A DNA stretch of 64,000 bases, taken from the NCBI GenBank assembly GCA_964507245.1, contig CAZDQC010000004.1, positions 1,771 to 65,770 of the forward strand, read 5' to 3'. The position numbers and the translations under genes are program-made. Positions 6,099-49,638 of the stretch are shown one piece after another. This DNA is from an uncultured Rhodospirillaceae bacterium. GTDB taxonomy: Bacteria > Pseudomonadota > Alphaproteobacteria > GCA-2731375. The notes beneath the pieces were generated by a model. The model had not been told where the DNA came from. It was given only the letters and a program-made list of their open reading frames with translations, and did not search any database. Each line of letters opens with the position of its first letter. Position 1 is the first letter of the stretch.

Positions 6099-6101
6099 CG
6101 G

Positions 6102-6587: not shown

Positions 6588-6834
6588 TTTGAGTCTCCTA
6601 GCTTTTCAAACATTCTGCTCCCATTGTCCGAATGGCTCAATATTTGAGGAAAAATTCGTCCGTCGCTTAACTCCTAATTCCTATCTTATCCAAGACATAA
6701 CGCATCCAAGACAACCTATATACTCAGTGAAATGTGCCCCTGCTGCTAATCGATAATACGATTGTTAAGTTGGGTTTTTTGGGAAAACGCGCTATGAATT
6801 AAATTAGAAACAAAATTGACGAAAGGCCATTCTC

Positions 6835-7779
6835 ATGAGAGCGGATATTGATGTTGAGGTTTGTGAGGTTGGCTTGCGTGATGGGATCCAAGGTATCGAT
6901 CAATTTTTCCCGACAGACAAGAAAATGGCCTGGATTGCTGCCGAAGCGGCAGCGGGTGTAGGCGAAATTGAGGTCTGCTCTTTCGTGCCTCCCAGTGTCT
7001 CAGGTCAATTCATCGATTGTGAAGAGGTAGTCGCCAATGCCTTGACCCACGATGGCCTGACGGTTTCCGCGCTTGTCCCTAATCTGCGTGGGGCGGAAAG
7101 AGGTTTTCCTACCGGCCTTCACAAGTTGAACTTCGTCCTTTCAATTTCAGAAAGTCATAATCAGGCCAATGTGCGGTGCAGCCGAGAAGAATCTCTAGAA
7201 CGGTTCCGGCAGATTGCGGAATTGCGGAACTCGACCGCGGCGAACAAAAAGGTCCAATTAGGGGTGGGTTTAGCGACCGCTTTGGGATGCACCATCGAAG
7301 GCCAAGTGGATCCTGGCGAAATTGTCCGCATCGCCGAAAAAACATTGGAATACGGTGCTGACGAACTTTCCGTCTCCGACACTGTAGGCTATGCCAATCC
7401 CACGCAGGTTCGCGATGTATTTCGGTTGTTGCGCCGGCATCTCGGAGATGACGTGATTTTAGCCGGTCATTTTCATGATACCCGTGGTCTGGGTTTAGCG
7501 AATGTACATGCCGCCCTGGATGAAGGGGTGCGAAGCTTTGATGCCTCGTTGGCTGGATTGGGTGGCTGTCCCTTCGCACCTGGTGCTTCCGGCAATATTG
7601 TCATGGACGATCTAGTTTTTATGCTGGAAGCCATGGGGCTACGAACCGGTGTGGATCTGGAAAAATTGGTGGCCGTTCGTGAAATCGTCGCCGCAGGGCT
7701 ACCGAACGAACCTTTATTGGGGGCCATTGCAAAGGCCGGTGTTCCAAAAGGCTTCAGGCCGGCTGTTGTGGCAGCTTAG
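6835..7779 (+). CDS. hmgL: Hydroxymethylglutaryl-CoA lyase
   Basis: 314 aa with DRE_TIM/HMGL-like signatures (EVGLRDGIQ; GxxExSxSD; HFHDTRGLGLANV; GLGGCPFA). Confidence 0.85.
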   Translation: MRADIDVEVCEVGLRDGIQGIDQFFPTDKKMAWIAAEAAAGVGEIEVCSFVPPSVSGQFIDCEEVVANALTHDGLTVSALVPNLRGAERGFPTGLHKLNFVLSISESHNQANVRCSREESLERFRQIAELRNSTAANKKVQLGVGLATALGCTIEGQVDPGEIVRIAEKTLEYGADELSVSDTVGYANPTQVRDVFRLLRRHLGDDVILAGHFHDTRGLGLANVHAALDEGVRSFDASLAGLGGCPFAPGASGNIVMDDLVFMLEAMGLRTGVDLEKLVAVREIVAAGLPNEPLLGAIAKAGVPKGFRPAVVAA

Positions 7780-8042
7780 GAGTTAAATCCGGATAGCGTC
7801 GTATAAGTACTGATTTTTGCTGTGCACGTCCGCGCTAGTCGCGAACGCCTGGGGGGATATCTTCTCAAATATTACAACCTTGACGTCGAACAATCCGTAA
7901 ACAAGGCATTGGAGGGCGTCCGCAACCTAGCTGCCTGCCGGATTTCAAGTTGGCCTCAGATACTTCATAAGAAAACTGAGTTTTTGACTTCTAACCAACG
8001 AACCAACTTCTCAACCAAAGCCATCATCAGTATTGAATAGGT

Positions 8043-10052
8043 TCATTCCTCTTCTGTTGCGAATATAACCAATTCGGTATCTTCGGTGACCTGCTCTCCT
8101 GTCGTAAAGGGAACGTCTTCGATTAAGGCATCCCTGGGCGCGGTGATGGTATGTTCCATTTTCATGGCTTCAAGAATGAGGAGCGCATCACCCTTTTTTA
8201 CGTTGGAACCAGGTTCCACTAACACCTGAACAATTTTGCCCGGTAGAGGCGCCGTTACCTTTGAACCCTCCTCCATATCTACATTCACCAGGGCCATACG
8301 ATCAACATGTTCAATGCGGTAGGCCCGATCATTGCTGAGGATTGTCACCTTATCCCTATCACGCACAACGGCCGCAGAAACCTTCAGGCCATCCAAATCG
8401 GCCCAAATAGTACCACCCTCGTCCACTTCACCGTCGGCCACGATTTGCCCACCTGGCAGATCAAGACGATAGCCACCGCCCCTTAGATAATGAATCGTCA
8501 CCACTAATTCGCTACCGTCTTGATCAAGGAAAATGAGTTCGTCATGTCCTTGATCGATCAGACGCCAGCCATCCACCCGGTTCCATGGGGAATAGGGGTC
8601 GGCTGGTGCCGCATAACCACGGCGAGACTGCAGTAGATCAAGACAGGCCAGGGCCAGGGCCTGATCGGGGACCGGGCCGGGAACCGGGATCAAATCTTCC
8701 TTGTGTTTATTGATAAAACCGGTTTCCAGATTGCCTGCAACAAAAGACGGATGGCCTACCACGGCAGCAAGGAAATCCACATTAGTAATTACGCCCGCGA
8801 TTTCATAGTTCTCAAGCGCTTTGCCCAAACGACGCAAAGCCGTTGAACGGTCGCGATCCCAGGCAATCAGTTTGGCGATCATGGGATCGTAGAACATCGT
8901 GACTTCTTCACCCTCTCGCACCCCTGTCTCCAGGCGCAAATTGGTGCTTTCGGCAGGTGGTCGCAGCCGATGCAAAGTGCCGGTTGCAGGCAGAAAATTT
9001 TTCTGTGGGTTCTCAGAGTAAATCCGTGCCTCGACCGCGTGGCCGGTAATTGACAGCTCGTCCTGGCTCAACGGAAGCTCATCACCAGCCGCCACATACA
9101 ATTGCCAACTCACCAGATCTTGCCCTGTAACCATCTCAGTCACGGGATGCTCCACCTGTAGCCGGGTATTCATTTCCATGAAATAAAAGGCATCCTCGGA
9201 CAGGCCTTGGCCAATGTCTGCAATGAATTCCACAGTACCTGCTCCGACATAGCCAATGGCCTTGGCAGCCTCGACCGCTGCTTCGCCCATGGCACTACGC
9301 ATTTCTAGTGTAATGCCAGGGGCGGGCGCCTCTTCCAATACTTTTTGGTGGCGACGCTGGATGGAGCAATCACGTTCGAATAGATGAACTATATTGCCAT
9401 GTTGATCGGCAAATATTTGGATTTCTATATGTCGGGACCGCTCGAGAAATTTTTCAACCAACACTCGATCATCACCGAATGACGAAAGTCCTTCTCGGCG
9501 CGCCCCCTTCAAGGCAGCGGCAAACCGGTTCGCGTCATTGGCTTGCCGCATCCCCTTCCCGCCACCGCCCGATACGGCCTTAATTAGGACGGGATAGCCA
9601 ATTTCATCCGCTGCCCTAGTCAATACAGCGTCGTCCTGATTGTCGCCATGATAACCAGGTAAAACTGGAACCTTCGCCTTTTGCATTAGAGCTTTGGCAG
9701 TACCCTTTTCTCCCATGGCTCGGATTGACTTCGCAGGGGGACCGATGAAGATAAAATTGGCTGCCACGCAGGCTTCAGCGAAAGTGGCGTTTTCCGACAA
9801 AAAACCATAGCCCGGATGAATGGCCTCGGCGCCGGTTCGTTGGGCAGCCTCGATGATTTTTTCAATCGACAGATAACTTTCCCGTACGGGCGCCGGTCCT
9901 AGAAAAACAGCCTCGTCCGCCATGGTCACATGCATGGCATTGGCATCGGCTTCTGAAAAGACCGCGACAGTAGAAATTCCCATGCGTTGGGCGGTTCGGA
10001 TAACCCGGCAGGCGATTTCACCCCGGTTTGCAATAAGAATTTTGCTAAACAT
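8043..10052 (-). CDS. mccA: Methylcrotonyl-CoA carboxylase alpha subunit (biotin carboxylase + BCCP)
   Basis: ORF 8043-10100. The ATG at 10052 gives the canonical MFSKILIANRGEIA N-terminus. ATP-grasp and biotin carboxylase motifs are present, and the C-terminal EAMKM biotinylation motif. It lies 13 nt downstream of the carboxyltransferase gene. Confidence 0.85.
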   Translation of the reverse strand: MFSKILIANRGEIACRVIRTAQRMGISTVAVFSEADANAMHVTMADEAVFLGPAPVRESYLSIEKIIEAAQRTGAEAIHPGYGFLSENATFAEACVAANFIFIGPPAKSIRAMGEKGTAKALMQKAKVPVLPGYHGDNQDDAVLTRAADEIGYPVLIKAVSGGGGKGMRQANDANRFAAALKGARREGLSSFGDDRVLVEKFLERSRHIEIQIFADQHGNIVHLFERDCSIQRRHQKVLEEAPAPGITLEMRSAMGEAAVEAAKAIGYVGAGTVEFIADIGQGLSEDAFYFMEMNTRLQVEHPVTEMVTGQDLVSWQLYVAAGDELPLSQDELSITGHAVEARIYSENPQKNFLPATGTLHRLRPPAESTNLRLETGVREGEEVTMFYDPMIAKLIAWDRDRSTALRRLGKALENYEIAGVITNVDFLAAVVGHPSFVAGNLETGFINKHKEDLIPVPGPVPDQALALACLDLLQSRRGYAAPADPYSPWNRVDGWRLIDQGHDELIFLDQDGSELVVTIHYLRGGGYRLDLPGGQIVADGEVDEGGTIWADLDGLKVSAAVVRDRDKVTILSNDRAYRIEHVDRMALVNVDMEEGSKVTAPLPGKIVQVLVEPGSNVKKGDALLILEAMKMEHTITAPRDALIEDVPFTTGEQVTEDTELVIFATEEE

Positions 10053-10065
10053 CGGTGCGTCGGCT

Positions 10066-11673
10066 CTACATCCGAAATACGCCGAACTCGGTTGACTCAA
10101 CCGGGGCGTTCAGCGCTGCGGATAAGGCTAGGCCCAGAACGTTGCGGGTTTCAGCTGGATCAATCAGGCCGTCGTCCCAACCGCGTGCTGTTGCAAAATA
10201 AGGGGAACTTTGCTCCGTGAATTGATCAATGATCGGTTGTTTAAATTCCGCCTCTTCTTCCTCTGACCATTGCTCACCCTGACGCTCCAAACCGGTGCGA
10301 CGCACCGTAGCCAATACACCCGCCGCCTGGTCCGGTCCCATCAATGCCAAGGACGCGCTCGGCCACATCCACAAAAATCGCGGACTATATGCTCGCCCGC
10401 ACATGCCATAATTACCGGCGCCATAAGACCCGCCAATTACCACGGTGAACTTAGGCACCTTGGTTGTGGACACAGCCGTAACCAGTTTGGCGCCATCCTT
10501 GGCGATGCCACCCGCCTCGTATTTTTGCCCGACCATAAAGCCGGAAATATTCTGTAAGAACACCAGTGGAATGCCCCGCTGGCTACAAAGCTCGATGAAA
10601 TGAGCCCCCTTAAGAGCGGATTCAGAAAACAAAATCCCATTGTTAGCGACGATACCCACTGGGTAACCCCAAATATTAGCAAAACCGCATACCAAGGTAG
10701 TACTATACAGACGCTTGAATTCATCAAACTCACTGCCATCCACAATGCGGGCAATGACTTCGTGCACATCGTATGGTTGACGCACATCCTGGGGCAGGAT
10801 GCCGTATAGATCTGCCGGATCATAAACGGGATCTCGGGGCAGTCGGATCTCGATGGATTTCGGTTTTACTCGGTTCAAATTGGAAACAATTCGCCGGGCA
10901 ATTGCTAACGCGTGATGGTCGTTCAGTGCGTAATGGTCGGTGACACCCGAAGTGCGCGAATGCAAATCCGCTCCACCCAAGTCCTCGGCTGATACTTCCT
11001 CGCCGGTGGCAGCCTTGACGAGCGGCGGGCCGCCCAAAAATATAGTGCCCTGTTCTCGGACAATAATGCTCTCGTCGGACATCGCGGGCACATAGGCTCC
11101 ACCCGCAGTACACGAGCCCATGACTACTGCAATTTGGGGAATACCTTTGGCCGACATATTTGCCTGATTGTAAAAAATTCTCCCAAAATGATCCCGGTCA
11201 GGGAAAACATCCGGCCATTCAGGCAGGTTCGCACCGCCAGAATCTACAAGATAGATGCAGGGAAGATGATTTTGTTCCGCTACTTCCTGAGCGCGGACAT
11301 GTTTCTTGACGGTCATAGGATAATAGGTGCCACCTTTGACCGTGGCGTCATTGGCAATTACCAGGCATTCCAGGCCGGACACTCGGCCAATTCCAGTTAT
11401 CACACCCGCCGACGGAATATCCTCCTCATACAAATCCCATGCCGCAAGTTGTTGTAATTCAAGAAATGGAGCGCCGGGATCCAGCAAACAACGGATACGT
11501 TCCCGCGGCAGCAACTTGCCGCGGCCCACATGCCGTTTCCGGGCACGCTCTCCGCCCCCTAAGTTGACTTTAGCCACAGCGGCGCGCAGCGATTTCAGTT
11601 TTTCTTCCATCTGAGTGGCGTTTGCCAGGAAGTCAGACGAGTGGGTTTGAATTTTACTAGTAATCAGCGTCAT
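10066..11673 (-). CDS. mccB: Methylcrotonyl-CoA carboxylase beta subunit (carboxyltransferase)
   Basis: 535 aa acyl-CoA carboxyltransferase with two crotonase-like domains, directly upstream of mccA. Confidence 0.85.
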
Positions 11674-14327: not shown

Positions 14328-15185
14328 ATGCCTGCCCATTCCTCCGCCGCAGGTTCCGAACTAGATATCAGCACAACGACCGTGACTGCGCGCAAGGCCT
14401 TAGCGTACGCAGCAGGCATCATGGATACTAGTACCCAAGTTTTTAATGATGACCGTCCCGGCGGGATTACTACTCCGCCGCAGTTCTGTGTTTCCCTGGA
14501 ATGGCCCGTGGTGAATGGCAACCTCTCACGCAGTGTCGTTGGCATGCCACCGAAAGAACGGGTACGCAACGTACATGCCAGTCAGGATTCCATTTTTCAC
14601 CAAACTATTCATCCGGGCATGAACCTGTCCACAACTGGGACTATCGCTGCCATTCGGCGAACGCGCGCCGGGGCCCTGACGCTAACTAAACTGACGACTG
14701 TTGATGCCGACACCGGGCAACCGGTAGTTACTTCGTGGTCCACCGGAATTGCGCGTGACGTAGAGGTCGTTGGTGAGGACGTCAACCTGGAGCACCCTCC
14801 AGCATTACCCGAGGCAGGATCCGAGGTCATGAAAACCGTCGAAATCTTTGTGCCGCGGGAAATGTCCCATACCTATACGGAATGTGCCGATATCTGGAAC
14901 CCGATCCATACCGAGCGCGAAGTAGCTATTGCGTCTGGATTACCGGATATTATCCTTCATGGCACTGCCACATGGGCCTTAGCGGGTAGGGAAATAATTC
15001 GGCTGTGTTGTGGCAGCGATCCATCCAGGTTAAGTCGACTATTCGGGCGCTTCACGGCGATGGTGATCCCAGGTACTACAATCCGAGCGGAAATTCGGGA
15101 GCCATCAGAAGGGGTGATCGGGTTTTCAGTTTACAATGACCGTAACCAGTCGGCCATCTCTGACGGTGTGGCTATCATCGGATAG
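14328..15185 (+). CDS. MaoC-like (double hotdog) dehydratase / enoyl-CoA hydratase family
   Basis: 285 aa with an N-terminal hotdog-like half and a C-terminal MaoC dehydratase half. Confidence 0.7.
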   Translation: MPAHSSAAGSELDISTTTVTARKALAYAAGIMDTSTQVFNDDRPGGITTPPQFCVSLEWPVVNGNLSRSVVGMPPKERVRNVHASQDSIFHQTIHPGMNLSTTGTIAAIRRTRAGALTLTKLTTVDADTGQPVVTSWSTGIARDVEVVGEDVNLEHPPALPEAGSEVMKTVEIFVPREMSHTYTECADIWNPIHTEREVAIASGLPDIILHGTATWALAGREIIRLCCGSDPSRLSRLFGRFTAMVIPGTTIRAEIREPSEGVIGFSVYNDRNQSAISDGVAIIG

Positions 15186-15226: not shown

Positions 15227-16462
15227 ATGGATATGCGACTGACGAGTCGCCAGAAAAAATTGATCGACCGGGCCCGAGAATTGGCCATGGAATGTTTTGC
15301 CCCCCGTGCCGCTAACTTGGACCGTACCGCCGAATTCCCCTTTGCGGATTATGATGATCTGCGTGATGCGGGATTTCTAGGCCTATGTGTGCCGGAAGAA
15401 TATGGTGGTCTTGGCGCGGATTTGGAAACCTATTGCCTGGTTTCCGAGCAGATCGCCCAAGGTAACGCTTCCACAGCCCTGTCCTACAACATGCATTGCT
15501 TAACCATGCTGATGATGGGCGAAATGGCCGATGCCCATGAAATGAGCGAAGTAAAACGTGCCCGACATGAGGTGCTGAGGGCGGCAAATTTTTGTGAAGT
15601 CATCGAAAAGAATGTTTTTTATGGGCAGCCTCATAGCGAACCAGTGGAAGAAGGTGAAACTGATCATGTTTTCAAGGTAGGCGGGCGTCGCTTTGGGACA
15701 ACAGCAGACAAAACTGAAGGCGGATATCGGCTCAACGGTCGAAAATTTTTTGTCTCTTTGTCCGGTGCCGCCGACTATTTTGCAACGCCGGCAATCTTGA
15801 ACGAAGACGGCCCTTTCGTCGAACGAACCCTGTACCTCAAAGTACCGTGTGATGCTCCAGGCGTCACCTTTACGGGTGAATGGGACCCAATTGGCATGCG
15901 GGCAACCGTGAGTCGCGACATGGAATTAGAGAATGTTCTTGTTCCCGAAGAGTCCGAAATATTGCCCCCTGGCGTTTTTGGCGGGCTCTATTTGACATCC
16001 GCTCATGGTCCGTTGCTATTTTCAGCAACATTTCTCGGTATCATGCAAGCCGCGTACAACTACACATTGGATTACCTGACGGGCGGAGTGCCAGGCTCTC
16101 CAGCAAAAGACCAAATTGGACCAGTAATGGGGAACAGCATCGCCCATATGTTGTTCATGGTGGAAGCAGCCCGCGCCTTATATTATAGATCAATATCTGA
16201 AGCAAAATTACGACCTACACACGAAATTCGGCAAAGGGCGCGCGCTGCCCATATGACTATTCAGAAAACCGTGGTCGAGGTAGCCCAGGAGGCCATCCGC
16301 GTTTGCGGTGGCCGTGCCCTGCTTAAAAAATATCCACTTGAAAGGTTTCTCCGGGACGCACAGGCCGCTTCAGTTATGCGGCCATGGACAAGAGAGATTG
16401 CCACGCAAGCGACCTGGGAAAGCGCCATAGAACACGTTCGCAAGAAGAATAACGCGCAATAA
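15227..16462 (+). CDS. Acyl-CoA dehydrogenase family protein
   Basis: 411 aa with ACAD three-domain signatures. It follows the MaoC gene after a 41-nt gap. Confidence 0.85.
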   Translation: MDMRLTSRQKKLIDRARELAMECFAPRAANLDRTAEFPFADYDDLRDAGFLGLCVPEEYGGLGADLETYCLVSEQIAQGNASTALSYNMHCLTMLMMGEMADAHEMSEVKRARHEVLRAANFCEVIEKNVFYGQPHSEPVEEGETDHVFKVGGRRFGTTADKTEGGYRLNGRKFFVSLSGAADYFATPAILNEDGPFVERTLYLKVPCDAPGVTFTGEWDPIGMRATVSRDMELENVLVPEESEILPPGVFGGLYLTSAHGPLLFSATFLGIMQAAYNYTLDYLTGGVPGSPAKDQIGPVMGNSIAHMLFMVEAARALYYRSISEAKLRPTHEIRQRARAAHMTIQKTVVEVAQEAIRVCGGRALLKKYPLERFLRDAQAASVMRPWTREIATQATWESAIEHVRKKNNAQ

Positions 16463-16590
16463 CTTAAATAGGTTTATTCTTCGGCGTACTCATCAAGCAA
16501 TTCAGTATCAATTGCTAACAAACGGCCTCCCCATTGCATCCAAGTAACGCTCCTGAAATTTTGAGACCGTGCCGTTACTCATCCCATTCA

Positions 16591-17505
16591 TTAAGGTCCA
16601 TCGCCGCCCTTGTTCCAACCCGGCTTGTCTCCAGTGCCGGAATTGCCCGCCCCACGAACAGGAGTGAGGGGCAACGCAAAACCCTGGTTGAATGCAGCCC
16701 GTGCAATCACCACAAATTTCATCCACCAGCCGCCTAACACAGCCAATAAAGCACCAGTGACAACCAACCAAGGCCCTAACGGTCCAACAAATAAACCCAA
16801 GACAATTAGAATTACAGGTGCCAAATGCCCAGCAAAATTTATTGGCACTGCCGCGTTGTTCAAGACTTCCAATGCCTTTGCAGGTGCGCCGGTATCCGTC
16901 AGATCAGCAACATATCGTCGCCACGCCAACCACCGCCCCAAAAGCAGAACCACCAGCAACACCATCATCCAAACATACAGACTTGCCAGTAAAGACGTCG
17001 TAATCAGGATAAAGCCTGCGCCTTCCGTAAAGCCAGTTATGATAATTACAGGTATAAGACCGGGATGGCGCCAGGCCGGTATACCCTTGGAGGCATGGAG
17101 AATTTGCGCCTGGCAGTATAGATACAGCGCCGCCAGCAATGCCGTCACCCAAATGGCGGGCATAGCCAGAGACGCCACAGGCCAAAAGGGACCAGCCGTA
17201 ACCACCGCCAAAATTGTTGCAGGCAGGAGCCAAGTGGACACAAATGCCTCTCGTGTCATCCAGCTGGTTTGGGGATGGTAGAACACGTGCATAGCGCGCC
17301 AGGGACGCCCGATTTCTAACCAGACGCAAAGCAAACCAACTCCGACCAAGATCACTCCCAGTACACCTAAAGGCCAATAGGCAACCCCTTGGGCTGAGGC
17401 CATGGCTGCCAAGATAACCAGCCCGGCGCCACTGCCGCCGCCGATGAAATTTCCCGCTGCGCGCCAGTCCCAATTTGTCTGATGCCAGGGTTCAATCCGG
17501 CTCAT
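16591..17505 (-). CDS. Integral membrane anchor subunit of the molybdoenzyme complex (NrfD/DmsC/PadD-like)
   Basis: 304 aa, very hydrophobic, about 8 TM helices. The ATG at 17505 overlaps the Fe-S gene by 14 nt. The opposite-strand ORF 16610-17281 is low-complexity (Pro/Ala/Thr-rich) and is rejected. Confidence 0.65.
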   Translation of the reverse strand: MSRIEPWHQTNWDWRAAGNFIGGGSGAGLVILAAMASAQGVAYWPLGVLGVILVGVGLLCVWLEIGRPWRAMHVFYHPQTSWMTREAFVSTWLLPATILAVVTAGPFWPVASLAMPAIWVTALLAALYLYCQAQILHASKGIPAWRHPGLIPVIIITGFTEGAGFILITTSLLASLYVWMMVLLVVLLLGRWLAWRRYVADLTDTGAPAKALEVLNNAAVPINFAGHLAPVILIVLGLFVGPLGPWLVVTGALLAVLGGWWMKFVVIARAAFNQGFALPLTPVRGAGNSGTGDKPGWNKGGDGP

Positions 17506-18151
17506 GGTTCTTGTCCCAGATGTAATAGAAGCCGGGATCGGTGCCTAATTCTTCATGCATACGGAAGGTTTGGTTCTCTGCTAGCAGCCTGCTAACATTA
17601 CTGTCAGGATCATCTCGATCACCGAACGTCAAGGCATCGGCGATACAGGAATTGACACAGGCTGGTGTCACTTCCGGATCCACGCCCGGGGTTTGTCCGG
17701 TCTCCTTCGCCTGATCGATGCGGTCCTGGCAGAAATTGCATTTCATGGCCACCGACATGCGCTTGTCGTCAAAGCGCGCCTCTTCATGAGCCATAGCCTC
17801 TTTCTCATAGGCGAGGTCTCTTTTATGCACGATATGGCGTGCCTGATATGGGCACGCTACGGCGCAATAGCCACAGCCAATGCACAGATCGTAATCAATT
17901 TCAACAATGCCATCAGGCCGAATTTTAGTGGCGGTAGAGGGGCAAACATGTTCGCAGGGCGGATTTGCGCAATGCATGCAACCTACGGGCACGAAGGTGC
18001 GTTGCACTTGCGGATAGGTTCCAGTTTCCATGTCCAGAACCTGACGCCATTGCACGCCAGGCGGGGTGGCATTGGCAAGCTTGCAGGCCGCCGTACAGGT
18101 TTGGCAGCCCACACATCGGCGTAAATCCGCTGCCATGACATAACGAGTCAT
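17492..18151 (-). CDS. 4Fe-4S ferredoxin-type subunit (DmsB/PadC-like, four-cluster)
   Basis: ORF 17492-18289. The ATG at 18151 (MTRYVMAADLRRCVGCQTC...) overlaps the catalytic-subunit stop as ATGA. There are four CxxCxxCxxxCP-type motifs. Confidence 0.8.
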   Translation of the reverse strand: MTRYVMAADLRRCVGCQTCTAACKLANATPPGVQWRQVLDMETGTYPQVQRTFVPVGCMHCANPPCEHVCPSTATKIRPDGIVEIDYDLCIGCGYCAVACPYQARHIVHKRDLAYEKEAMAHEEARFDDKRMSVAMKCNFCQDRIDQAKETGQTPGVDPEVTPACVNSCIADALTFGDRDDPDSNVSRLLAENQTFRMHEELGTDPGFYYIWDKNHEPD

Positions 18152-20874
18152 GCCGCACCTTCCAACTTGTGCACCCCGACCCGAACAATATCGGCCGAGG
18201 AGCCGGTCGCATCCGTCAATGCCAATGACATTGGGACCACTGTGTTCATACTGGGTGCCGGATTGTCCTTGGAATAGGGCGTAACCCAATGGTCGAATTG
18301 CCCTTGGATCAAAATGGTATCCGGTCGAATGCCCTGTTTCAATGCTACCCGTCCCTTGGTGGAACGCAGAGTGGACTTAATTTCCACCAGGTCACCTTCT
18401 TCTATACCCATTTCCTGCGCACGACTGGTGTTCATTATCATTGCGCGATGACCGTGCATATTTTTTGCTACTTCGTCTATCATCTGGTTAGAACTATTCG
18501 AACCCCAGGCCAACTGCATACTGCGCGAGGTAAGCAACCAGAAGGGGTAATCCTCCAACTTGCCACCGGAGTTGACTGTGGCTTGTTCCCAGATACCTGG
18601 GAAATCCTTCCATGGCGGCAAGGCCTCGTATTCCTTCAGTTGCTCGTCCCACCATTCAATGCCCTTTTCATGCAGGCGGTTACCAAGCTGCTTGCCGACA
18701 CGCAGTAATTGTTCTTGATAGGGCATCTCAAACCTCAGGCCCTGTTTCTTGAGTTCTGGAAACAAGTACCAGATCAACCTGGAAATAGGCCGGGTACGCA
18801 TGCCGTGTTCCTTGTACCACGCGAGGCCGTCGGTCTCGGCCCCATCAGTCAACTCGGCAGAAGCCGCTTTACACATGGCTTCCCAAATATCCTCTGCTTC
18901 GTGGACCTGCTCCACATCCAAGCTAAAGTCATAATTACCACCCCTCAAGGGCACGCCTCCGGCGCCGCGATTGATGGCGTTGTTGTAATTCTCCAATACA
19001 CCTGCACGTTTTGCGATTTCCGTCGCAATGTCAGTAAAATCCCTGGTATCTCCAAGCGGCTTGATCGCAGGTTGACGAAGGGCTACGCCTTCGTGATCCC
19101 AATAACTTTCGGAAAACTTAGTGCCACCAACCCGGATTAATTGCGTGCTTTCAAAATCAGTGCATTCCGGCAACAGCACGTCCGCCATGTGATTGGTTTC
19201 ATCCCGAATGTAGGCAAAAGAAACCACAAACGGAAATTCAGAAATACGCTCCGTTACGGACTTGGTGTCCCAGAACGAGATGGCTGGGTTCGTGCGGTAT
19301 ACGAACCATAAATCCGGCTTCGACACCTTGTTCCAATTTTCCGGGCTTTCGTTACTCCACATCCAAGCCAAATGCGTCGGACCAAGTGCCTGGCTCCACG
19401 GAGATGAGGCGGATAAAGGCACCAGTGTATCGTGTGCATTACGCGCGCTTGGATTTTCTTGCCAATTTTCTTTGTCCGTTGGGTTCATAGGATAATTCAT
19501 AAAACCATCGGGGCCTGGAGAAACCGATGCCTGACGCGTAGTCGCAGGACGGTTCAAACGTACTGTCGTGCCCAGAGTGCCGCCAGGCACCTCCAAAGCG
19601 CCAACAAGGCAAGCCAATAGTGTACGACCCCAGCAGCTTTCATATCCGCCCCAACCATTATTCACTGTTTTACCAAGAATTACCGCCACCGGACGCAAGG
19701 GAAGTTCTTCCCCGTCGATTACCGTCGTCGCGCCGACCTGAGCATACGAAACAAATTCATCAGCAATCCGGCGGATGCAACCGTCTGGCACCTGACAAAT
19801 TTCCTCGGCCCATTCCGGCGTATATTGCTCCATCTGCTTAACCAGATGGTCAAAGGCGGTTTGTACCTGGATCTCTTCGTGCTCCCATTCCTCATCGTCC
19901 GGACCCAGTTCAATGCCCGACGCCGTAAAGGTGCCTTCTAATGCGGGAGTAATATCCGGTGTATCAAAGGGTACCGGGGCACCCCGTTTGGTATCCCACA
20001 GCAACGGTTTTTGCGTTACCAGATCGCGTAGGAAATAGCCATTCGGCGCAACTAAATATGGACTCCCAGTGTGGTCGCGCAGAAACTGTATATCCAGACG
20101 CTCTCGGGGCATCTCATGTAACATCACATTCATAAGGCCAAACATAAAGGCTGGGTCAGTCTTGGGACGGATCGGCACCCATTCGGCGGAACAGGCACCG
20201 GTAATTGACAAATGTGGTTCGATCTGCACACGCTTGGCACCGCGTACGCGGGCGTCCGCATGACGGGAAACACCCATAACTCCATGGGAAGCCTCCGGAT
20301 TGCCTCCAAACGAAAGAATGTAATTCGATGTCGGTGTATCGGCAGCGACCGTAAAGCCGCGGTGCCACAATTCCCCATATAAATGTTCGGAGTGAGTACA
20401 CTTCACCCCTTGCCCGGAACCAAAGCTGAAATCTACTGCACCCCATGCAGCGAGAAATGCGGGGAAAGTCCCCATATAATAGGTTGGCGTGCCACCACCG
20501 CCAAATGAAGCTGCAACCCGGGCATAACCATTTTCATCGCGTACACCCTTAGCCTTGATTTCCTTCAACTTTCCAGCGACTAAATCCAACGCCTCGTCCC
20601 AAGATATGGGAACGAAGCCAGGGTCCTCGTTACGGCCCTTTTTGGGATTAGTCCGTTTCATAGGCGTCAGCAGTCGGTTAGGATTATAGGTTTTTTGCAC
20701 TAGGCCATAGGCCTTGACGCAGGCCCGCCCAGCACCGGGATGTACGTCCTTCAACGCGAAGTTCGGTTCCACTTCCGTGGCGACTCCACCCTCCACCTTG
20801 ACCGTCAAGAAATCGGGCCCGGCAACGCATTGATAACAATATTGCGCAAATTTTTTTGATTTGCCCATACTCAA
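18148..20874 (-). CDS. Molybdopterin (bis-PGD) oxidoreductase catalytic subunit, DMSO-reductase family, no Tat signal
   Basis: 908 aa. It has an N-terminal Cys motif region (CYQC...C), molybdopterin oxidoreductase core domains and a C-terminal molybdopterin dinucleotide-binding domain. The N-terminus has no twin-arginine motif. Confidence 0.85.
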   Translation of the reverse strand: MSMGKSKKFAQYCYQCVAGPDFLTVKVEGGVATEVEPNFALKDVHPGAGRACVKAYGLVQKTYNPNRLLTPMKRTNPKKGRNEDPGFVPISWDEALDLVAGKLKEIKAKGVRDENGYARVAASFGGGGTPTYYMGTFPAFLAAWGAVDFSFGSGQGVKCTHSEHLYGELWHRGFTVAADTPTSNYILSFGGNPEASHGVMGVSRHADARVRGAKRVQIEPHLSITGACSAEWVPIRPKTDPAFMFGLMNVMLHEMPRERLDIQFLRDHTGSPYLVAPNGYFLRDLVTQKPLLWDTKRGAPVPFDTPDITPALEGTFTASGIELGPDDEEWEHEEIQVQTAFDHLVKQMEQYTPEWAEEICQVPDGCIRRIADEFVSYAQVGATTVIDGEELPLRPVAVILGKTVNNGWGGYESCWGRTLLACLVGALEVPGGTLGTTVRLNRPATTRQASVSPGPDGFMNYPMNPTDKENWQENPSARNAHDTLVPLSASSPWSQALGPTHLAWMWSNESPENWNKVSKPDLWFVYRTNPAISFWDTKSVTERISEFPFVVSFAYIRDETNHMADVLLPECTDFESTQLIRVGGTKFSESYWDHEGVALRQPAIKPLGDTRDFTDIATEIAKRAGVLENYNNAINRGAGGVPLRGGNYDFSLDVEQVHEAEDIWEAMCKAASAELTDGAETDGLAWYKEHGMRTRPISRLIWYLFPELKKQGLRFEMPYQEQLLRVGKQLGNRLHEKGIEWWDEQLKEYEALPPWKDFPGIWEQATVNSGGKLEDYPFWLLTSRSMQLAWGSNSSNQMIDEVAKNMHGHRAMIMNTSRAQEMGIEEGDLVEIKSTLRSTKGRVALKQGIRPDTILIQGQFDHWVTPYSKDNPAPSMNTVVPMSLALTDATGSSADIVRVGVHKLEGAA

Positions 20875-20880
20875 ATCCTT

Positions 20881-21294
20881 CTATGGCAGAACCGCCTCAC
20901 CCTCGATCTCAACCATAGCGTTGGGGTCTAACAAACGGCTGACCTCCACTAACGTCATGGCCGGAAAATTCTTGCCTAAATGCTGCCCCCAAGCCGCACC
21001 CACCGCCGCGCCGGCGGCGTTGAAGGCATCCAAGTCAGTAACATAAGCGCGCAGCATGACAATATGCTCTGGGTCGCCACCGGCAGCTTTCAAGATTGAC
21101 ACCAAATTCCCGAGGGCTTGTTCCCACTGTCCGCCGAAATCCAATCCTACCTGGACTGGAACGTCGCCACGTTCACCACCCACTTGCCCCGCGATGCGCA
21201 AAATTTTGCTACCATTTGCGACCACGCCCCAGGAAAATCCCCGCGCTCGGTCCCAACCTTCGGGCATGACAGACTGATAATCGATCGCGCTCAT
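20881..21294 (-). CDS. ridA: RidA family protein (YjgF/enamine-imine deaminase)
   Basis: 137 aa RidA fold. Its stop lies only 6 nt upstream of the Mo-enzyme gene start, so the two are probably co-transcribed. Confidence 0.8.
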   Translation of the reverse strand: MSAIDYQSVMPEGWDRARGFSWGVVANGSKILRIAGQVGGERGDVPVQVGLDFGGQWEQALGNLVSILKAAGGDPEHIVMLRAYVTDLDAFNAAGAAVGAAWGQHLGKNFPAMTLVEVSRLLDPNAMVEIEGEAVLP

Positions 21295-21339
21295 TTCGAT
21301 TGTCTCCAGCGATTATTTATCTCCTAACAAAATAACCCG

Positions 21340-22053
21340 ATGGCGCCTCATTTCACCAGCACTTATGCTACAGTTAAGCTGCAAGCCGCCTGCAATACCG
21401 AGATTTTCTTGACCCAAGTTTCGCCGCCAGCCTTCAATACCACGCCAACTGTGTTGATCCTAATAGCCATCAACGTCGGCGTTCATTTGTTGCGCATGCT
21501 ATTGCCGGGACAGTGGGATGCGATGATTGGCTTTGTGGGTGCCTTTTCCCCACCCTTGTGGATATCCATCGTCATAGGCGAAGGTAACCAATGGGGATAT
21601 ACTTTGCTGTTATCCCCAATCTTTTACGCATTTTTGCACGCAGATCTTCTGCATTTGGTGATCAACATGGGCTTTTTGCTGGCCTTTGGGACGGCCGTGG
21701 AAAGGCGCCTGGGGCAAGGGCCGTTCCTGGCTCTATATATTTTGTGCGCCGTTTGTGGGGCTTGCGCTAGTTTAGCTGTATATTTTGCCACATTCGAACA
21801 AACATTCATGGTTGGTGCTTCGGGTGCTATATCAGGATTATTCGGCGCGGTATTACGGAATTCCACCCGCAAGACCTGGACTGCCGTCGCAGCCTTTATC
21901 GCCATTAACCTAGTCATTGGCTACACGGGTTTGCCGAGCATGGGACAAGTGCGCGCCGTCGCGTGGGAGGCCCATATCGGTGGATTTCTAGCAGGATATT
22001 TGCTGTTCTCGCTGTTCGACGCCCGTACCCGCAGGCTGACGCCTAGAATTTAA
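21340..22053 (+). CDS. Rhomboid family intramembrane serine protease
   Basis: About 6 TM helices. The catalytic Ser sits in a GASGAISG motif and the catalytic His in AHIGGF. Confidence 0.8.
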   Translation: MAPHFTSTYATVKLQAACNTEIFLTQVSPPAFNTTPTVLILIAINVGVHLLRMLLPGQWDAMIGFVGAFSPPLWISIVIGEGNQWGYTLLLSPIFYAFLHADLLHLVINMGFLLAFGTAVERRLGQGPFLALYILCAVCGACASLAVYFATFEQTFMVGASGAISGLFGAVLRNSTRKTWTAVAAFIAINLVIGYTGLPSMGQVRAVAWEAHIGGFLAGYLLFSLFDARTRRLTPRI

Positions 22054-22066
22054 ACGGGAGATCAAA

Positions 22067-23155
22067 TTGCAAATTACCGCGCTCCGCACCGTACAGGTAG
22101 AAATTCCTTTCGAGACACCAATCCGTACCGCGATTCATCAGGTAGACTCTGTGGGCTGTGTCCTATTGTTTGTGGATACGGATGTCGGTTTGACTGGTGA
22201 GGGATTAGTCTGGTCGTTAGGCACCCGCCGACTACCCACGTTGGAAGCCTTGATTGAAAGCATGGCAGTTAAAGTCATCGGACGTGATCCCCACGAGCAC
22301 GCCGGACTGTGGAGCGAGATGTGGGGAGATTTAAATTTCTTCGGTCATAAGGGCATCACTCTGTTTGCCATCGGCTGCATCGACATGGCCTTATGGGATC
22401 TAGTAGGAAAGGCGAATAAACTTTCCGTATGCCGCCTACTGGGACAAAGCCGAGACCGCGTCAAAGCCTATAATTCCAGCGGTTTGTGGGTATCAATGAG
22501 TATCGATGAATTACAGGCCCAGGCGCGGGACTTTTTAGCTCAGGGCTACCACGCTATGAAAATGCGCCTGGGTAAACCATCGGTCAAAGAAGATATCGAA
22601 CGGATTGCGGCGGTGCGCGAAGTCATCGGCCCAGACGTGGACTTGATGGCGGATGCCAACCAGGGCTTTACTGTCAATCACGCCATCCGGTTAGGTCGTG
22701 AGTTGGAACCTTATAACCTAGTCTGGTTCGAAGAGCCGGTCCAAGCCTACGACCTCGACGGCTCGGCCCGCGTCGCAGCCGAGATTGACACCCCCATCGC
22801 CAGTGGCGAAACGGAATACGCTCGTTATGGCTTCCGTGATATGCTTGAGCGTGGCGCAGCGGATGTTCTGATGCCCGATCTGGAGCGGGTCGGCGGCATT
22901 ACCGAATTTGTCAAGGTGGCCAATATGGCCGATGCATTCGACGTTCCCGTTTCGCCTCACCTTTATACAGAACAATGCCTACAATTGTGCGGCGCCCTAA
23001 TTAATGTGACCTATAGCGAAATGATGCCCTGGTTCAGCACCTTGTATAACGAAACCATAGAACTGGTAGATGGAGACCTGTTGATACCGGATCGTCCAGG
23101 CCTGGGTTTCACATTCAATGAGGATGAGATGTCGCGCCTGCGGCTAGGGGATTAA
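22067..23155 (+). CDS. Enolase superfamily enzyme (mandelate racemase / muconate lactonizing enzyme family)
   Basis: 362 aa with a KxK motif (AMKMRLGK) and conserved metal-ligand D/E/D positions (DANQG, EEP, LMPD). Confidence 0.8.
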   Translation: MQITALRTVQVEIPFETPIRTAIHQVDSVGCVLLFVDTDVGLTGEGLVWSLGTRRLPTLEALIESMAVKVIGRDPHEHAGLWSEMWGDLNFFGHKGITLFAIGCIDMALWDLVGKANKLSVCRLLGQSRDRVKAYNSSGLWVSMSIDELQAQARDFLAQGYHAMKMRLGKPSVKEDIERIAAVREVIGPDVDLMADANQGFTVNHAIRLGRELEPYNLVWFEEPVQAYDLDGSARVAAEIDTPIASGETEYARYGFRDMLERGAADVLMPDLERVGGITEFVKVANMADAFDVPVSPHLYTEQCLQLCGALINVTYSEMMPWFSTLYNETIELVDGDLLIPDRPGLGFTFNEDEMSRLRLGD

Positions 23156-23159
23156 TGGA

Positions 23160-24275
23160 ATGGAGAACAACATGAAAATTGCCAAGGTCGACACTCATCT
23201 AGTACGCCTGCCTTACACCACGGGCGGTGATGGCAATATTGGCAACATGGATTGGTCCACCTTGGATTATGTGCTAGTGCGCATAGAAGTTGAGAGCGGC
23301 CTGGTTGGCTGGGGCGATGCCTTTGCCTACGGCGGCGCGGCGCGATCGGTCAAAGCAGTGGTGGATTACATGCTGGCGCCCCAATTGATAGGAAAGGATG
23401 CGTCGGCCATCGAGCAACTATCCTACTACCTGCAACAGGGTAATCACTTGGTGGGGCGCTATGGTATCACCATGTTCGGCATCTCAGGTATCGATATCGC
23501 ATTATGGGACCTAATGGGTAAGGCAACACACCAGCCAATTTCAACCTTGTTGGGCGGATCGCGGCGCAACGAAATTCCTGCCTATGCGTCATTATTCAAC
23601 TACGGTAACCCAGACCAAGTGGCAGAAAATTGTCAACGTGCCCTGGATGAGGGGTATCAATCCATTAAACTGCATGAAACCACTGAACAGGCTGTTCGAG
23701 CTGCCCGCGTCGCTATAGGTGATGATGTCCCGCTAATGGTTGATACCAATTGTCCGTGGACGCCATGGCAAGCCCACAAGGCTGCATTGTCCTTCAAACC
23801 CTATGATCTGCATTGGCTGGAAGAGCCTATTTTTCCACCTGAAAATTTCGAAAGCCTGAATCATTTGGGCATTGAAGTGGATATCCCTTTGGCTGCAGGC
23901 GAGAACGCCTGCACGGCCTTTGAATTTCAACAAATGATGGATGCCGAGGCGGTAACCTATTATCAACCGAGCGTGACCAAAGTGGGCGGCATCACGGAAT
24001 TCAAGAAGATTGTCACAATGGCGAATTTAAAGGGCAACACCGTCATGCCCCATGCACCGTACTTCGGTCCAGGTCTGCTAGCTACTCTGCAAATACTATC
24101 AACCATGCCGGACGAATGCCTAGCCGAAACATTTTATTACAAAACCTTGGAAGCCAGCCTATATGGGGAAACCATCAAGGCCGAGGATGGCAACATCACT
24201 GTCCCCTCCGGTCCTGGTCTTGGTCTTGACCCCAACCCCGATGTCATCAAGGACTATTGCGACAAAGAAACCTAA
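23160..24275 (+). CDS. Enolase superfamily enzyme (MR/MLE family), tandem paralogue
   Basis: 371 aa with the same family signatures (IKLH..., DTNCPW, EEP). It begins 5 nt after the previous gene. An alternative start lies at 23172 (MKIAKVD). Confidence 0.8.
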   Translation: MENNMKIAKVDTHLVRLPYTTGGDGNIGNMDWSTLDYVLVRIEVESGLVGWGDAFAYGGAARSVKAVVDYMLAPQLIGKDASAIEQLSYYLQQGNHLVGRYGITMFGISGIDIALWDLMGKATHQPISTLLGGSRRNEIPAYASLFNYGNPDQVAENCQRALDEGYQSIKLHETTEQAVRAARVAIGDDVPLMVDTNCPWTPWQAHKAALSFKPYDLHWLEEPIFPPENFESLNHLGIEVDIPLAAGENACTAFEFQQMMDAEAVTYYQPSVTKVGGITEFKKIVTMANLKGNTVMPHAPYFGPGLLATLQILSTMPDECLAETFYYKTLEASLYGETIKAEDGNITVPSGPGLGLDPNPDVIKDYCDKET

Positions 24276-25754: not shown

Positions 25755-26168
25755 CTAGAAACGCACCTGGGCCGTTCCCGGAGTAATAACGTCGCCATCC
25801 TCATTCTTGATGAATATTTCCAAATCTACATTACCAGATTCGGTATCGATAGCCGTGATGGCGCCACCGGAAGTAAGGGTTTCACCAAGATAAGAGGCGC
25901 GACGATTCGAATAATTGAAACTCGTAAGGGTAGCGTTATCTCCGATCCAATTGACCACGACCTGATTCAACCAATCCCCTTGCAAGGGCCCATCGATTAC
26001 TACACCGGGGTGATTTTCAACATTAGTCGTGTAGGGTTCATCATAATGTATGCGGTGGGGATTCCAGATCGCGGCATTGTATAAAAATAAGGAAACGTTT
26101 GTCGCCGTGTAGCTACGTTCAGGCAAAGCTTCCCCCACAGACAGCTCCGAAATTTTTATGCCACTCAT
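25755..26168 (-). CDS. MaoC family dehydratase (hotdog fold, C-terminal-type half of a split hydratase)
   Basis: 137 aa with MaoC-like signatures. It overlaps the upstream partner by 4 nt. Confidence 0.75.
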   Translation of the reverse strand: MSGIKISELSVGEALPERSYTATNVSLFLYNAAIWNPHRIHYDEPYTTNVENHPGVVIDGPLQGDWLNQVVVNWIGDNATLTSFNYSNRRASYLGETLTSGGAITAIDTESGNVDLEIFIKNEDGDVITPGTAQVRF

Positions 26169-26620
26169 CGCAAAATCCTCGTTTGCTTTTCTTCCATTAC
26201 CAATTCACCGTCCTCGTTCTCTACCGACAGGTTATAAACCGCAAATATCAAAGGCCCAGATTTGCCCTGTTTTTCATACAGGTCATGTAGAGAACGGGTG
26301 GCTATCAATTTGTCTCCGGGCTTCACGGGACGATGGAACCGCATTTCCGTACCTCCCGCCATGACCCTCTTCAAAGGCAATTCAGGCAAAAAGCTATCTG
26401 GTGGAATGCCATCTGGTCCCAATTCATCCATTGGCACGAGAGGCCTCAGGGCGCCAAACATGAACATGGGCGGTGCCTCGTCGCCTTTAAGGTATTTTTC
26501 CTGTTGCTGCTCGGTCGCAATAGAATATTTCACTATGTCCCTGCGGCTAATTTCCACAAGAAAGGGTTCCGCACTGCGTCCAATCCAGGACTTTGCCTCA
26601 TCGCTGATCAATTCATTCAA
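26165..26620 (-). CDS. MaoC N-terminal-like / FAS1-like dehydratase hotdog protein (partner of 25755-26168)
   Basis: 151 aa. Translationally coupled to the MaoC gene, a layout typical of heterodimeric (R)-enoyl-CoA hydratases. Confidence 0.65.
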   Translation of the reverse strand: MNELISDEAKSWIGRSAEPFLVEISRRDIVKYSIATEQQQEKYLKGDEAPPMFMFGALRPLVPMDELGPDGIPPDSFLPELPLKRVMAGGTEMRFHRPVKPGDKLIATRSLHDLYEKQGKSGPLIFAVYNLSVENEDGELVMEEKQTRILR

Positions 26621-26631
26621 TGCCGTGTTCC

Positions 26632-27864
26632 TTATCGACCGCCCACGATGCCGTCGTCATGCAGGCTTGTAATTTCTCCACCGCTTAATCCTAATATTTC
26701 CGATAAAATTTCATCCGTATGCTGTCCAAGTGAAGGGGCAGGTTGCACAGTTTCGCGCGGGGTCGCCCCAAAGTCTAGAGGTGAGCCAGGAGTGAGGTAT
26801 GTACCAATACCAGGCTGATCCACCTGTTCGAAGAGGGGATTTTCCGTAGAACAACGCCAATCATTGTCCAGAGCCTGCTTAATACTTTGATATGGGCCCC
26901 ATGATACTCCGCCAGCTATCAATTTTTCTGACAATTCGGAATATTCCCACGACCCACACCAGGCCTCTAGAAGCATCGCAATTTCATCGGTGGCCAGATA
27001 TCGATCCCCTTCCCGTCTCAGATCAAGGCCGCGCCGTGCTTCTATTGCCGTTACCCCTTCAGAAATGTTGGCTGTTTCCACCAGAGCGGACCACTGCCGG
27101 CCCGTAATTGCGACGATCATCAGTCGACGACCGTCCTTAGTAACAAAATCCCGGCCAAATGCGCCGAATAGATTATTGCCCGTGGTCGTGCGCTCCGTTC
27201 CGTTAATCTGCGCTTCGCCAATGAAACCGAGGTTTCCTAAGGTGGCGAATGCCATATCAGTCAGCGCCAGCGATATGAATTGCCCCTCTCCCGTTAGTCT
27301 ACGATGCCGATCTGCGGCCAGAATGCCGTTGACCGCGGCCAGACCAGTGGCAATATCCCACGCCGGCAGCACATGATTGACCGGCGCCGCCTCGCCTACG
27401 GGGCCGGTGAGGTTGGGAAAGCCAGTGGCTGGGTTGACCGTGTAATCGACCTCGGACGAGCCATCGCGGTTGCCCTTAATGTTAAGCATAATAATATCGT
27501 TGCGTCGGCCCCTCATTGTCTCGTAGGACATCCAACCCGAGGTCGGGAAATTAGTGAGAAAAATTCCGGTATTCTGCCCCGGCATGCAGATCAGTTGGGT
27601 CAATAGCTCCTGACCTCGGGGATTGCGGATGTCAACAGCAAATGATTTTTTACCCTTATTCAAACCCGCCCAATAGATGCTTTCGCCATTCGCGGTTACC
27701 GGCCAGCGGCGATAGTCCAAGCCACCCCCTAAGGGGTCGAAACGTATAACCTCGGCGCCCATTTGTGCCAAAGTCATGCCGGCGCTGGGCGCAGCGATAA
27801 AAGCCGATCCCTCGATCACTCGCAAACCTTTCAAAATCCCGTTCATTAATTTTCCTATGATCAT
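26632..27864 (-). CDS. Family III CoA transferase (CaiB/BaiF family)
   Basis: 410 aa. The N-terminal LKGLRVIEGSAFIAAPSAGMTLAQMGAEVIRFD is the canonical signature. Confidence 0.85.
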   Translation of the reverse strand: MIIGKLMNGILKGLRVIEGSAFIAAPSAGMTLAQMGAEVIRFDPLGGGLDYRRWPVTANGESIYWAGLNKGKKSFAVDIRNPRGQELLTQLICMPGQNTGIFLTNFPTSGWMSYETMRGRRNDIIMLNIKGNRDGSSEVDYTVNPATGFPNLTGPVGEAAPVNHVLPAWDIATGLAAVNGILAADRHRRLTGEGQFISLALTDMAFATLGNLGFIGEAQINGTERTTTGNNLFGAFGRDFVTKDGRRLMIVAITGRQWSALVETANISEGVTAIEARRGLDLRREGDRYLATDEIAMLLEAWCGSWEYSELSEKLIAGGVSWGPYQSIKQALDNDWRCSTENPLFEQVDQPGIGTYLTPGSPLDFGATPRETVQPAPSLGQHTDEILSEILGLSGGEITSLHDDGIVGGR

Positions 27865-42783: not shown

Positions 42784-42927
42784 AGTTCATTTTATGTTGA
42801 TCCAGCACGATGGATTTACTCGAGAACATCAATATTTTTTATTATACAAACGAATTACAACTATAATTTGGATACTAGGTGGCCACGCAATCCAACTAAA
42901 TTGGGCAAGACAATAAGTTATTATATT

Positions 42928-43656: not shown

Positions 43657-43713
43657 CGCCTCTTTCCTAATTATTCGGAATTCTTACTGTTTGATGAAAG
43701 CATTAGCGATATT

Positions 43714-49630: not shown

Positions 49631-49638
49631 TTGACCCC

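Follow-up and report, generated by a model that had tools for sequence, protein, structure and literature searches.

Which reaction is catalysed by the three-subunit molybdoenzyme whose genes stand behind a Rid-family gene in an uncultured marine alphaproteobacterium? The genes lie on the minus strand of a 64,000-nucleotide stretch of contig CAZDQC010000004.1 (assembly GCA_964507245.1, an uncultured Rhodospirillaceae bacterium), and this whole stretch is called the window here. A first-pass annotation had described them as an operon for a cytoplasm-facing, PadBCD-like enzyme led by a RidA gene, and had proposed an acyl-CoA substrate together with a reactive enamine or imine intermediate. Judged by its sequence, the locus is a member of the PadBCD family and thus encodes a known enzyme, not merely one that is PadBCD-like. 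The best explanation, with a probability of roughly 0.7, is that it is an orthologue of PadBCD. That enzyme, the phenylacetyl-CoA:acceptor (quinone) oxidoreductase (EC 1.17.5.1), serves the breakdown of phenylalanine and phenylacetate in the absence of oxygen.

The four coupled minus-strand genes (Table 1) are present with the junctions that had been claimed. The Rid-family gene stops 6 nt before TTG 20874 and 12 nt before ATG 20868, the padB stop overlaps the padC start as ATGA, and 14 nt are shared between padC and padD. The open reading frame (ORF) of 908 amino acids (aa) reported for the catalytic subunit exists when read from the TTG (18148-20874), but this start is the less likely one, and the true start of padB is likely ATG 20868, which gives 906 aa. 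This ATG has an AAGGA box 7 nt upstream, and a database protein that is 100% identical to the window PadB (P0001) agrees with it. The order padB-padC-padD and its coupling are found again in more than 20 independent loci, and the arrangement is therefore not due to chance. A promoter and terminator scan of 16300-21600 found sites no commoner than in shuffled sequence and is uninformative on transcript structure. A search for FNR boxes (TTGAT-N4-ATCAA, with at most two mismatches) gave 41 matches against 37.6 expected, none of them upstream of the operon.

The window PadB is 67% identical to PadB of Thauera aromatica K172 (P0085) over 99-100% of the length, and the window PadC and PadD are 68% and 41-44% identical to their T. 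aromatica counterparts. In the chromosomal locus of P0085, the genes for the molybdenum, Fe-S, and membrane subunits are followed by five whose products have POR, Fer4, Pyr_redox, and TPP domains, and then by an AMP-binding ligase gene. It agrees with the published pad cluster, which consists of padBCD, the phenylglyoxylate-oxidoreductase genes padEFGHI, and the phenylacetate-CoA-ligase gene padJ (PMC4453571; PMC5109826). PadB relatives number thousands, and each of the best 120 reaches 64% identity or more across its whole length. In the JGI data, many PadB-family proteins and anchor subunits are named phenylacetyl-CoA:acceptor oxidoreductase. NCBIfam has no PadB model, and the window PadB stays far below the cut-offs for PhsA (157 vs 694 bits), ArrA (108 vs 1600 bits), and TtrA (40 vs 1750 bits). 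The T. aromatica PadB gives the same sub-threshold list, with PhsA, DmsA, and ArrA far below their cut-offs. Since a genuine PadB shows the same profile, the missing NCBIfam equivalog match is uninformative.

In a single neighbour-joining tree of 130 sequences, which carries no support values, the marine clade of the window is sister to P0017 and nested inside the PadB family. Bona fide pad clusters flank this clade on both sides: T. aromatica (L001) and L030 branch on one side of it, while L026 and L023 branch on another. The locus L030, from a Rhodospirillales metagenome-assembled genome (MAG), has the same full pad cluster as T. aromatica. L026 has a phenylacetate-CoA-ligase-type gene divergent from padBCD, and in L023 padBCD adjoins genes whose domains are those of 4-hydroxybenzoyl-CoA reductase and of benzoyl-CoA reductase. 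The MAGs of the window's clade are marine Alphaproteobacteria, mostly from low-oxygen or deep water, and their names refer to Saanich Inlet, the eastern tropical North Pacific, the Arabian Sea, the Black Sea at 150 m, and a 3000-m sample. The catalytic subunit does not group with a periplasmic reductase clade, and as no Tat signal emerges either, neither of the outcomes that the first-pass annotation named as refuting its reading has come about.

All members of the PadB family, T. aromatica included, have YCYQCVAGPD...C at the N-terminus (window 20797-20838, residues 11-24, with Cys50). Three Cys residues stand where a four-Cys FS0 motif is usual, with Pro-Asp in place of the third Cys, and no family member gives a match to PF04879. 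Cys157 of PadB (GVKCTHSEH) is invariant and aligns near the molybdenum-ligand region of ArrA.

The absence of a twin-arginine translocation (Tat) signal from the catalytic and Fe-S subunits, claimed earlier, withstands a check of the start codons. Two codons upstream of TTG 20874, the earliest padB start, the frame is closed by a stop codon, which makes an N-terminal extension impossible. PadB begins with MGKSKKFAQYCYQC..., which has no RR motif, and its homologues share short N-termini in the alignment. PadC can formally be extended upstream by 46 codons that lie inside padB, and this extension has no twin-arginine consensus, RR motif, or hydrophobic core. Orthologues of PadC are 215-218 aa long and start at the coupled Met. 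The sole RR of PadC (residues 11-12) abuts the first Cys motif. PadC has 16 Cys residues in four ferredoxin motifs, and its sub-threshold matches are DsrO, NrfC, and TtrB, which are four-cluster electron-transfer subunits. A Tat signal is thus not possible on PadB as predicted from its reading frame, and none is recognized on PadC. Because neither subunit has an export signal, both should be on the cytoplasmic face.

PadD has the fold of a PsrC-type anchor. Alone, the window PadD gives only sub-threshold Pfam matches, to NrfD (E 0.036, nearly full length) and to DmsC (E 0.16). Among the aligned PadD members, window included, 8/8 match DmsC at E<=1 (best 4.7e-10) and 5/8 match NrfD. The source names of its homologues are DMSO reductase anchor and phenylacetyl-CoA:acceptor oxidoreductase 26-kDa subunit. 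A PadD profile search against PDB sequences gave no meaningful match. An AlphaFold model built on 30 homologues (predicted local distance difference test score, pLDDT, 85; predicted template-modelling score, pTM, 0.85) has PsrC of polysulfide reductase as its top PDB fold match (2vpw_C, E 2.2e-4, TM score 0.68), followed by the NrfD-like ActC subunits of alternative complex III. Hydropathy indicates about eight transmembrane helices. The loops rich in Lys and Arg are the most conserved loops and are on the same side as both termini. By the positive-inside rule this side would be the cytoplasm, which fits the docking of Tat-less PadB and PadC there. With the identities of 67%, 68%, and 41-44% and the nested position of the clade, the description of a PadBCD-type, three-subunit, Tat-less enzyme facing the cytoplasm holds more strongly than it was first put.

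By analogy with the T. aromatica enzyme, we infer the substrate, the quinone coupling, and the molybdenum cofactor of the orthologue. PadB would be a cytoplasmic molybdoprotein with a bis(molybdopterin guanine dinucleotide) (bis-MGD) cofactor, catalysing the four-electron oxidation of the alpha-methylene group of phenylacetyl-CoA or a very similar arylacetyl-CoA. Water would be the oxygen donor and phenylglyoxylyl-CoA the product. PadC would carry the electrons along its four [4Fe-4S] clusters to PadD, the PsrC/NrfD-like membrane subunit, which would reduce quinone.

Several points weigh against the assignment as an orthologue. Sequence alone cannot tell substrate specificity, and the PadB family may not be mono-functional, as several of its members (L028, L029) are in non-aromatic contexts. 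The placement among pad clusters comes from one tree without support values. The recurrence of Rid upstream of padB in 14 marine loci leaves room for a functional link between the two. Further, padEFGHI, padJ/paaK, and FlK were not found in the 64-kb window by Pfam and tblastn, and tblastn with PaaK/PadJ, PadG, and PadI of L030 gave no match in the window or in the marine-clade loci (±10 kb). Linkage of these genes defines the Pad pathway, not the enzyme. The steps before and after PadBCD in the marine lineage must be encoded elsewhere or be different.

Because the pathway partners are unlinked here, the main rival to orthology is that the enzyme, though of the PadBCD family, has shifted in substrate or role. 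Its substrate could be another arylacetyl-CoA or a 2-unsubstituted acyl-CoA, for example one supplied by a nearby family III CoA-transferase, and its 2-oxoacyl-CoA product would perhaps be kept as a thioester, since no FlK thioesterase is linked. A shift of this kind would suit the absence of padJ, padEFGHI, and FlK from the window and, within ±10 kb, from every marine-clade locus. It would also suit the varied gene contexts of the PadB family members and the synteny of CoA-transferase III, EamA, and MaoC in L003 and L004. The last of these loci comprises padD, MaoC, EamA, and CoA-transferase III and has no acyl-CoA dehydrogenase (ACAD), and L003 has a hemerythrin gene after padD. However, the CoA-transferase/MaoC block is missing from most marine loci (L008, L010 with MaoC only, L015, L021, and L022), the ACAD is unique to the window, and genes unlinked in a MAG window may still exist elsewhere in the genome. 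Residue conservation bears on both sides. When conserved columns are defined as alignment positions at least 95% conserved in the 104 non-marine PadB members (n=328), the marine clade has two fixed differences, Y786L and A866S, while 322 of the 328 columns are identical in it. A shifted role is thus possible but improbable.

The immediate neighbours had been taken as evidence that the substrate is an acyl-CoA thioester. The MaoC and ACAD genes are on the opposite strand and convergent with the padBCD operon, and no counterpart of the ACAD is present in any related locus examined. Given this orientation and the patchy distribution across marine loci, the two genes say nothing on the substrate. 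An acyl-CoA substrate is still likely by homology to PadBCD, and what falls away is the neighbour-gene argument for it.

In seven unrelated loci (L023-L030), a gene for an FlK-type hotdog thioesterase of 134-137 aa stands directly upstream of padB, and in T. aromatica a gene of this type closes the pad cluster. Hydrolysis of phenylglyoxylyl-CoA is assigned to a separate hydrolase, EC 3.1.2.25. In the pathway, phenylglyoxylyl-CoA is formed and then hydrolysed to phenylglyoxylate (PMC9765128). The FlK-type thioesterase upstream of padB is a candidate for the phenylglyoxylyl-CoA hydrolase. In some of these loci FlK and padB occur with no adjoining padC or padD. In L024/L025, padB is followed directly by selA and selB, and in L029 it is followed by DUF2249, a 449-aa protein of unknown function, and hemerythrin.

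The Rid-family protein of the window had been read as a RidA enamine/imine deaminase, hinting at a reactive intermediate. It scores 44 bits against TIGR00004, the model of the RidA subfamily (cut-off 106.25), and 20 bits against NF008490 (cut-off 222). Arg105 of Escherichia coli YjgF (FPARS) aligns with Met (FPAMT) in the window protein, and Met is found at this position in 119 of 121 subfamily sequences, the window protein counted. Imine hydrolysis requires Arg105, and Rid subfamilies that lack it do not appear to catalyse this reaction (PMC4433059). The window protein belongs by its residues to the Arg-less Rid proteins and is predicted to be no imine deaminase. Since Arg-less Rid subfamilies are considered non-hydrolases of imines, the enamine or imine inference is left without support.

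The position of the Rid gene also speaks against this idea. Within the marine clade, Rid stands directly before padB in the window and in L002-L005 and L017, its closest relatives, and nowhere else. A Crp/FNR-family gene of 241 aa separates Rid from padB in eight relatives (L007, L008, L010, L011, L014, L015, L021, and L022). In L006 an SDR (short-chain dehydrogenase/reductase) gene, the Crp/FNR regulator, and padBCD are present, with no Rid gene within ±10 kb. Two genomes, that of Chelatococcus reniformis and one other, have Rid homologues with 64% identity that lie away from any pad gene. Across the marine clade, the Rid gene is within a conserved block that comprises a divergent rhomboid gene and two enolase-superfamily genes. 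Comparison of these loci suggests that Rid came to adjoin padB by loss of the intervening Crp/FNR gene. Rid and padB are likely co-transcribed in the window, because the gap between them is only 6-12 nt. The Rid gene is most likely a neighbour that takes no part in the enzyme chemistry and is no conserved part of pad operons.

The tandem enolase-superfamily genes of the window, of the MR/MLE (mandelate racemase/muconate-lactonizing enzyme) type, are syntenic with rhomboid and Rid across the marine clade. A link of these 'mandelate racemase' superfamily genes to phenylglyoxylate was considered and rejected, and nothing points to mandelate either, as their best matches are acid-sugar dehydratases, below cut-offs.

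In a second rival, the Arg-less Rid protein would itself be a working fourth component, which would replace the FlK-type phenylglyoxylyl-CoA thioesterase or would process or quench the reactive 2-oxoacyl-CoA. Rid occupies the same slot as FlK in L023-L030, with similar size (137 vs 134-137 aa) and spacing, and a linked FlK is missing in the marine clade. The gap of 6-12 nt implies co-transcription. Among marine loci whose upstream sequence is readable, Rid precedes padB in 14 (13 and the window), and L006 is the sole clear exception. In contrast, Rid is not homologous to FlK, and we know of no Rid-family thioesterase. The regulator gene that intervenes in eight relatives, the lack of Rid in L006, and the 64%-identical homologues away from pad genes all count against the proposal, and the rhomboid/enolase synteny block could account for the position of Rid. 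A functional part for Rid is therefore decidedly unlikely; if true, it would be the first biochemical function for an Arg-less Rid subfamily. The related thought that the Rid protein is a diverged FlK thioesterase was rejected, as Rid and FlK do not align.

The Crp/FNR gene is immediately upstream of padB in L006 and in the eight loci where it separates Rid from padB. Its product matches FtrB best in NCBIfam, below the cut-off (151 vs 211 bits). This hints at low-oxygen control. The gene is absent from the window and its closest relatives. Just downstream of padBCD, a hemerythrin gene and a gene for a 428-449-aa protein that matches nothing in Pfam or NCBIfam recur in distant lineages. Oxygen or nitric oxide sensing and maturation are possibilities for the role of this pair. 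Neither gene is present in the window.

SoeABC is a Tat-less, cytoplasm-facing three-subunit enzyme with molybdenum, Fe-S, and NrfD-like subunits. It is very unlikely that the window encodes a different molybdoenzyme of this architecture, such as a SoeABC-type sulfite:quinone dehydrogenase, misnamed by similarity. The shared Tat-less A/B/NrfD-like C architecture would allow it, a sulphur-transport gene is near the operon in L008, and the ACAD next to the window operon weakly matches 3-sulfinopropanoyl-CoA desulfinase. However, the ACAD falls far short of the desulfinase cut-off (104 vs 600 bits), scores about as high against acryloyl-CoA reductase, its best NCBIfam match, and is not conserved in related loci; a role of the ACAD as a desulfinase feeding sulfite was rejected. 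The 67% full-length identity to PadB of the T. aromatica pad cluster also counts against this rival, and sulfite dehydrogenase is the name of none of the best 120 PadB or the best 120 PadD matches. SoeABC is set apart here by the source names, which are all PadB or generic and never SoeA, and by closeness to PadB, not by comparison with SoeA sequences, and a literature search linking SoeABC or SoeA with PadB found nothing useful. The reading that the start was mis-called and the enzyme is a periplasmic respiratory reductase, acting on polysulfide, thiosulfate, tetrathionate, or arsenate, is effectively refuted, for although PhsA, ArrA, and PsrA are the best NCBIfam and PDB sequence matches of PadB and the anchor folds like PsrC, the scores are far below cut-offs (PhsA 157 vs 694) and mainly cover the N-terminal third, the in-frame stop bars an N-terminal extension, and the four-Cys FS0 motif is missing across the whole PadB family.

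The remaining genes of the window have general catabolic functions. The modABC molybdate importer named in the first-pass annotation is confirmed, as all three genes exceed their NCBIfam cut-offs (ModA 140 vs 62.5, ModB 335 vs 262, and ModC 426 vs 285 bits). It lies 27 kb from the operon and has no specific linkage to it. A low-GC stretch (0.40 vs about 0.51 elsewhere) contains a GNAT acetyltransferase and an amino-acid-type ATP-binding cassette (ABC) transporter with an ATPase, two permeases, and a binding protein, and may be horizontally acquired. A leucine-catabolism-like set comprises an acyl-CoA dehydrogenase, an HMG-CoA-lyase-like (3-hydroxy-3-methylglutaryl-CoA lyase) gene, an alpha subunit with biotin carboxylase and biotin carboxyl carrier protein (BCCP) parts and the BT domain of methylcrotonyl-CoA carboxylase (MCC), and a carboxyltransferase beta subunit. 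A separate acyl-CoA module has a second family III CoA-transferase, a hotdog-type gene, and an ORF of 137 aa. Two further long ORFs have no Pfam match at E<=1e-5.

Table 1. Coordinates of the locus, of other window features, and of features in related loci (prefixed by the locus)
Feature	Position	Strand	Basis or remark
Rid-family gene, 137 aa	20881-21294	minus	PF01042, E 6.6e-17
padB, molybdopterin (bis-MGD) catalytic subunit, 906 aa	18148-20868	minus	PF00384 and PF01568; no signal peptide
padC, four-cluster [4Fe-4S] ferredoxin subunit, 219 aa	17492-18151	minus	Fer4_11 and Fer4_7 matches
padD, NrfD/DmsC/PsrC-like integral membrane anchor, quinone-side, 304 aa	16591-17505	minus	fold and family-level Pfam matches
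MaoC	14328-15185	plus	Pfam
Acyl-CoA dehydrogenase (ACAD)	15227-16462	plus	Pfam
modABC	48845-51392		above NCBIfam cut-offs
Tandem enolase-superfamily (MR/MLE) genes	22067-24275		
Leucine-catabolism-like set	4848-11673		
HMG-CoA-lyase-like gene	6835-7779		in leucine-catabolism-like set
Acyl-CoA module	25755-27864		
137-aa ORF	25755-26168		no Pfam match; in acyl-CoA module
FAS1_DH_region hotdog-type gene	26165-26620		PF13452; in acyl-CoA module
Second family III CoA-transferase	26632-27864		in acyl-CoA module
Long ORF, 504 aa	36143-37657		
Low-GC stretch	42001-46000		
Long ORF, 459 aa	53433-54812		
FlK-type genes	L023:9585-9992, L026:9584-9991, L028:9574-9978, L029:9583-9990		PF22636, upstream of padB
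FlK-type genes	L030:9588-9995, L024/L025:9582-9995, L027:393-800		PF22636, upstream of padB
FlK-type gene, end of T. aromatica pad cluster	L001:22700-end		PF22636
FlK-padB with no adjoining padC or padD	L024/L025:9582-16064, L029:9583-15035		
Crp/FNR-family gene	L008:9191-9916		immediately upstream of padB
Hemerythrin and 428-449-aa protein pair	L008:14561-15847 and 15934-16434		also L007, L009-L011, L014, L015, L021, L022
Hemerythrin / 428-449-aa protein regions	L026:14416-16169; L029:13081-15035; L023:18176-18676		

The locus places an oxygen-independent attack on phenylacetyl-CoA, a compound central to the breakdown of phenylalanine and aromatics, among uncultured marine Alphaproteobacteria. 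Many of the related MAGs have names that point to oxygen-minimum and deep waters. The finding is of modest use for interpreting how carbon is turned over in oceans low in oxygen. The enzyme is not new, and its proteins already bear its name in at least one annotation source. The seemingly unusual features, the RidA partner and the acyl-CoA neighbours, do not survive comparison of the loci. Specialists may gain more from two by-products, the FlK gene upstream of padB and the hemerythrin gene with the gene for the protein of about 430 aa downstream.

Among known systems, PadBCD of Thauera aromatica, Azoarcus evansii, and Aromatoleum aromaticum has the same subunits, order, and translational coupling, no Tat signals, and the same three-Cys motif in PadB. 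The window proteins of 906, 219, and 304 aa agree with the subunits expected of PadBCD, namely a molybdenum subunit of about 93-100 kDa, a four-cluster Fe-S subunit of about 25 kDa, and a membrane subunit. In contrast, the window locus is unlinked to padEFGHI, padJ, and FlK, and has an Arg-less Rid gene upstream instead. Its host is an uncultured marine alphaproteobacterium in which the activity is predicted, whereas the known hosts are denitrifying betaproteobacteria. The FlK-padBCD operons of diverse Proteobacteria (L023, L026, L028, and L030) have the same padBCD core, with 65-76% PadB identity. Their upstream gene of about 135 aa encodes a hotdog FlK protein (PF22636), while that of the window encodes an unrelated Rid-fold protein.

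The RidA deaminases (YjgF/TdcF) share PF01042 and a C-terminal Glu-containing motif with the window Rid protein. They have the catalytic Arg105, whereas the window protein has Met, is below the TIGR00004 cut-off, and groups with the Arg-less Rid proteins. The closest solved structures, PsrABC/PhsABC and ArrAB, belong to a common superfamily with the window enzyme and follow the same logic of a bis-MGD subunit, a four-cluster ferredoxin, and an NrfD-type anchor. They differ in being Tat-exported and periplasm-facing, with a four-Cys FS0 motif and inorganic substrates, and their sequence similarity to the window proteins is remote. SoeABC has a different substrate, and by every result obtained the window protein is far closer to PadB.

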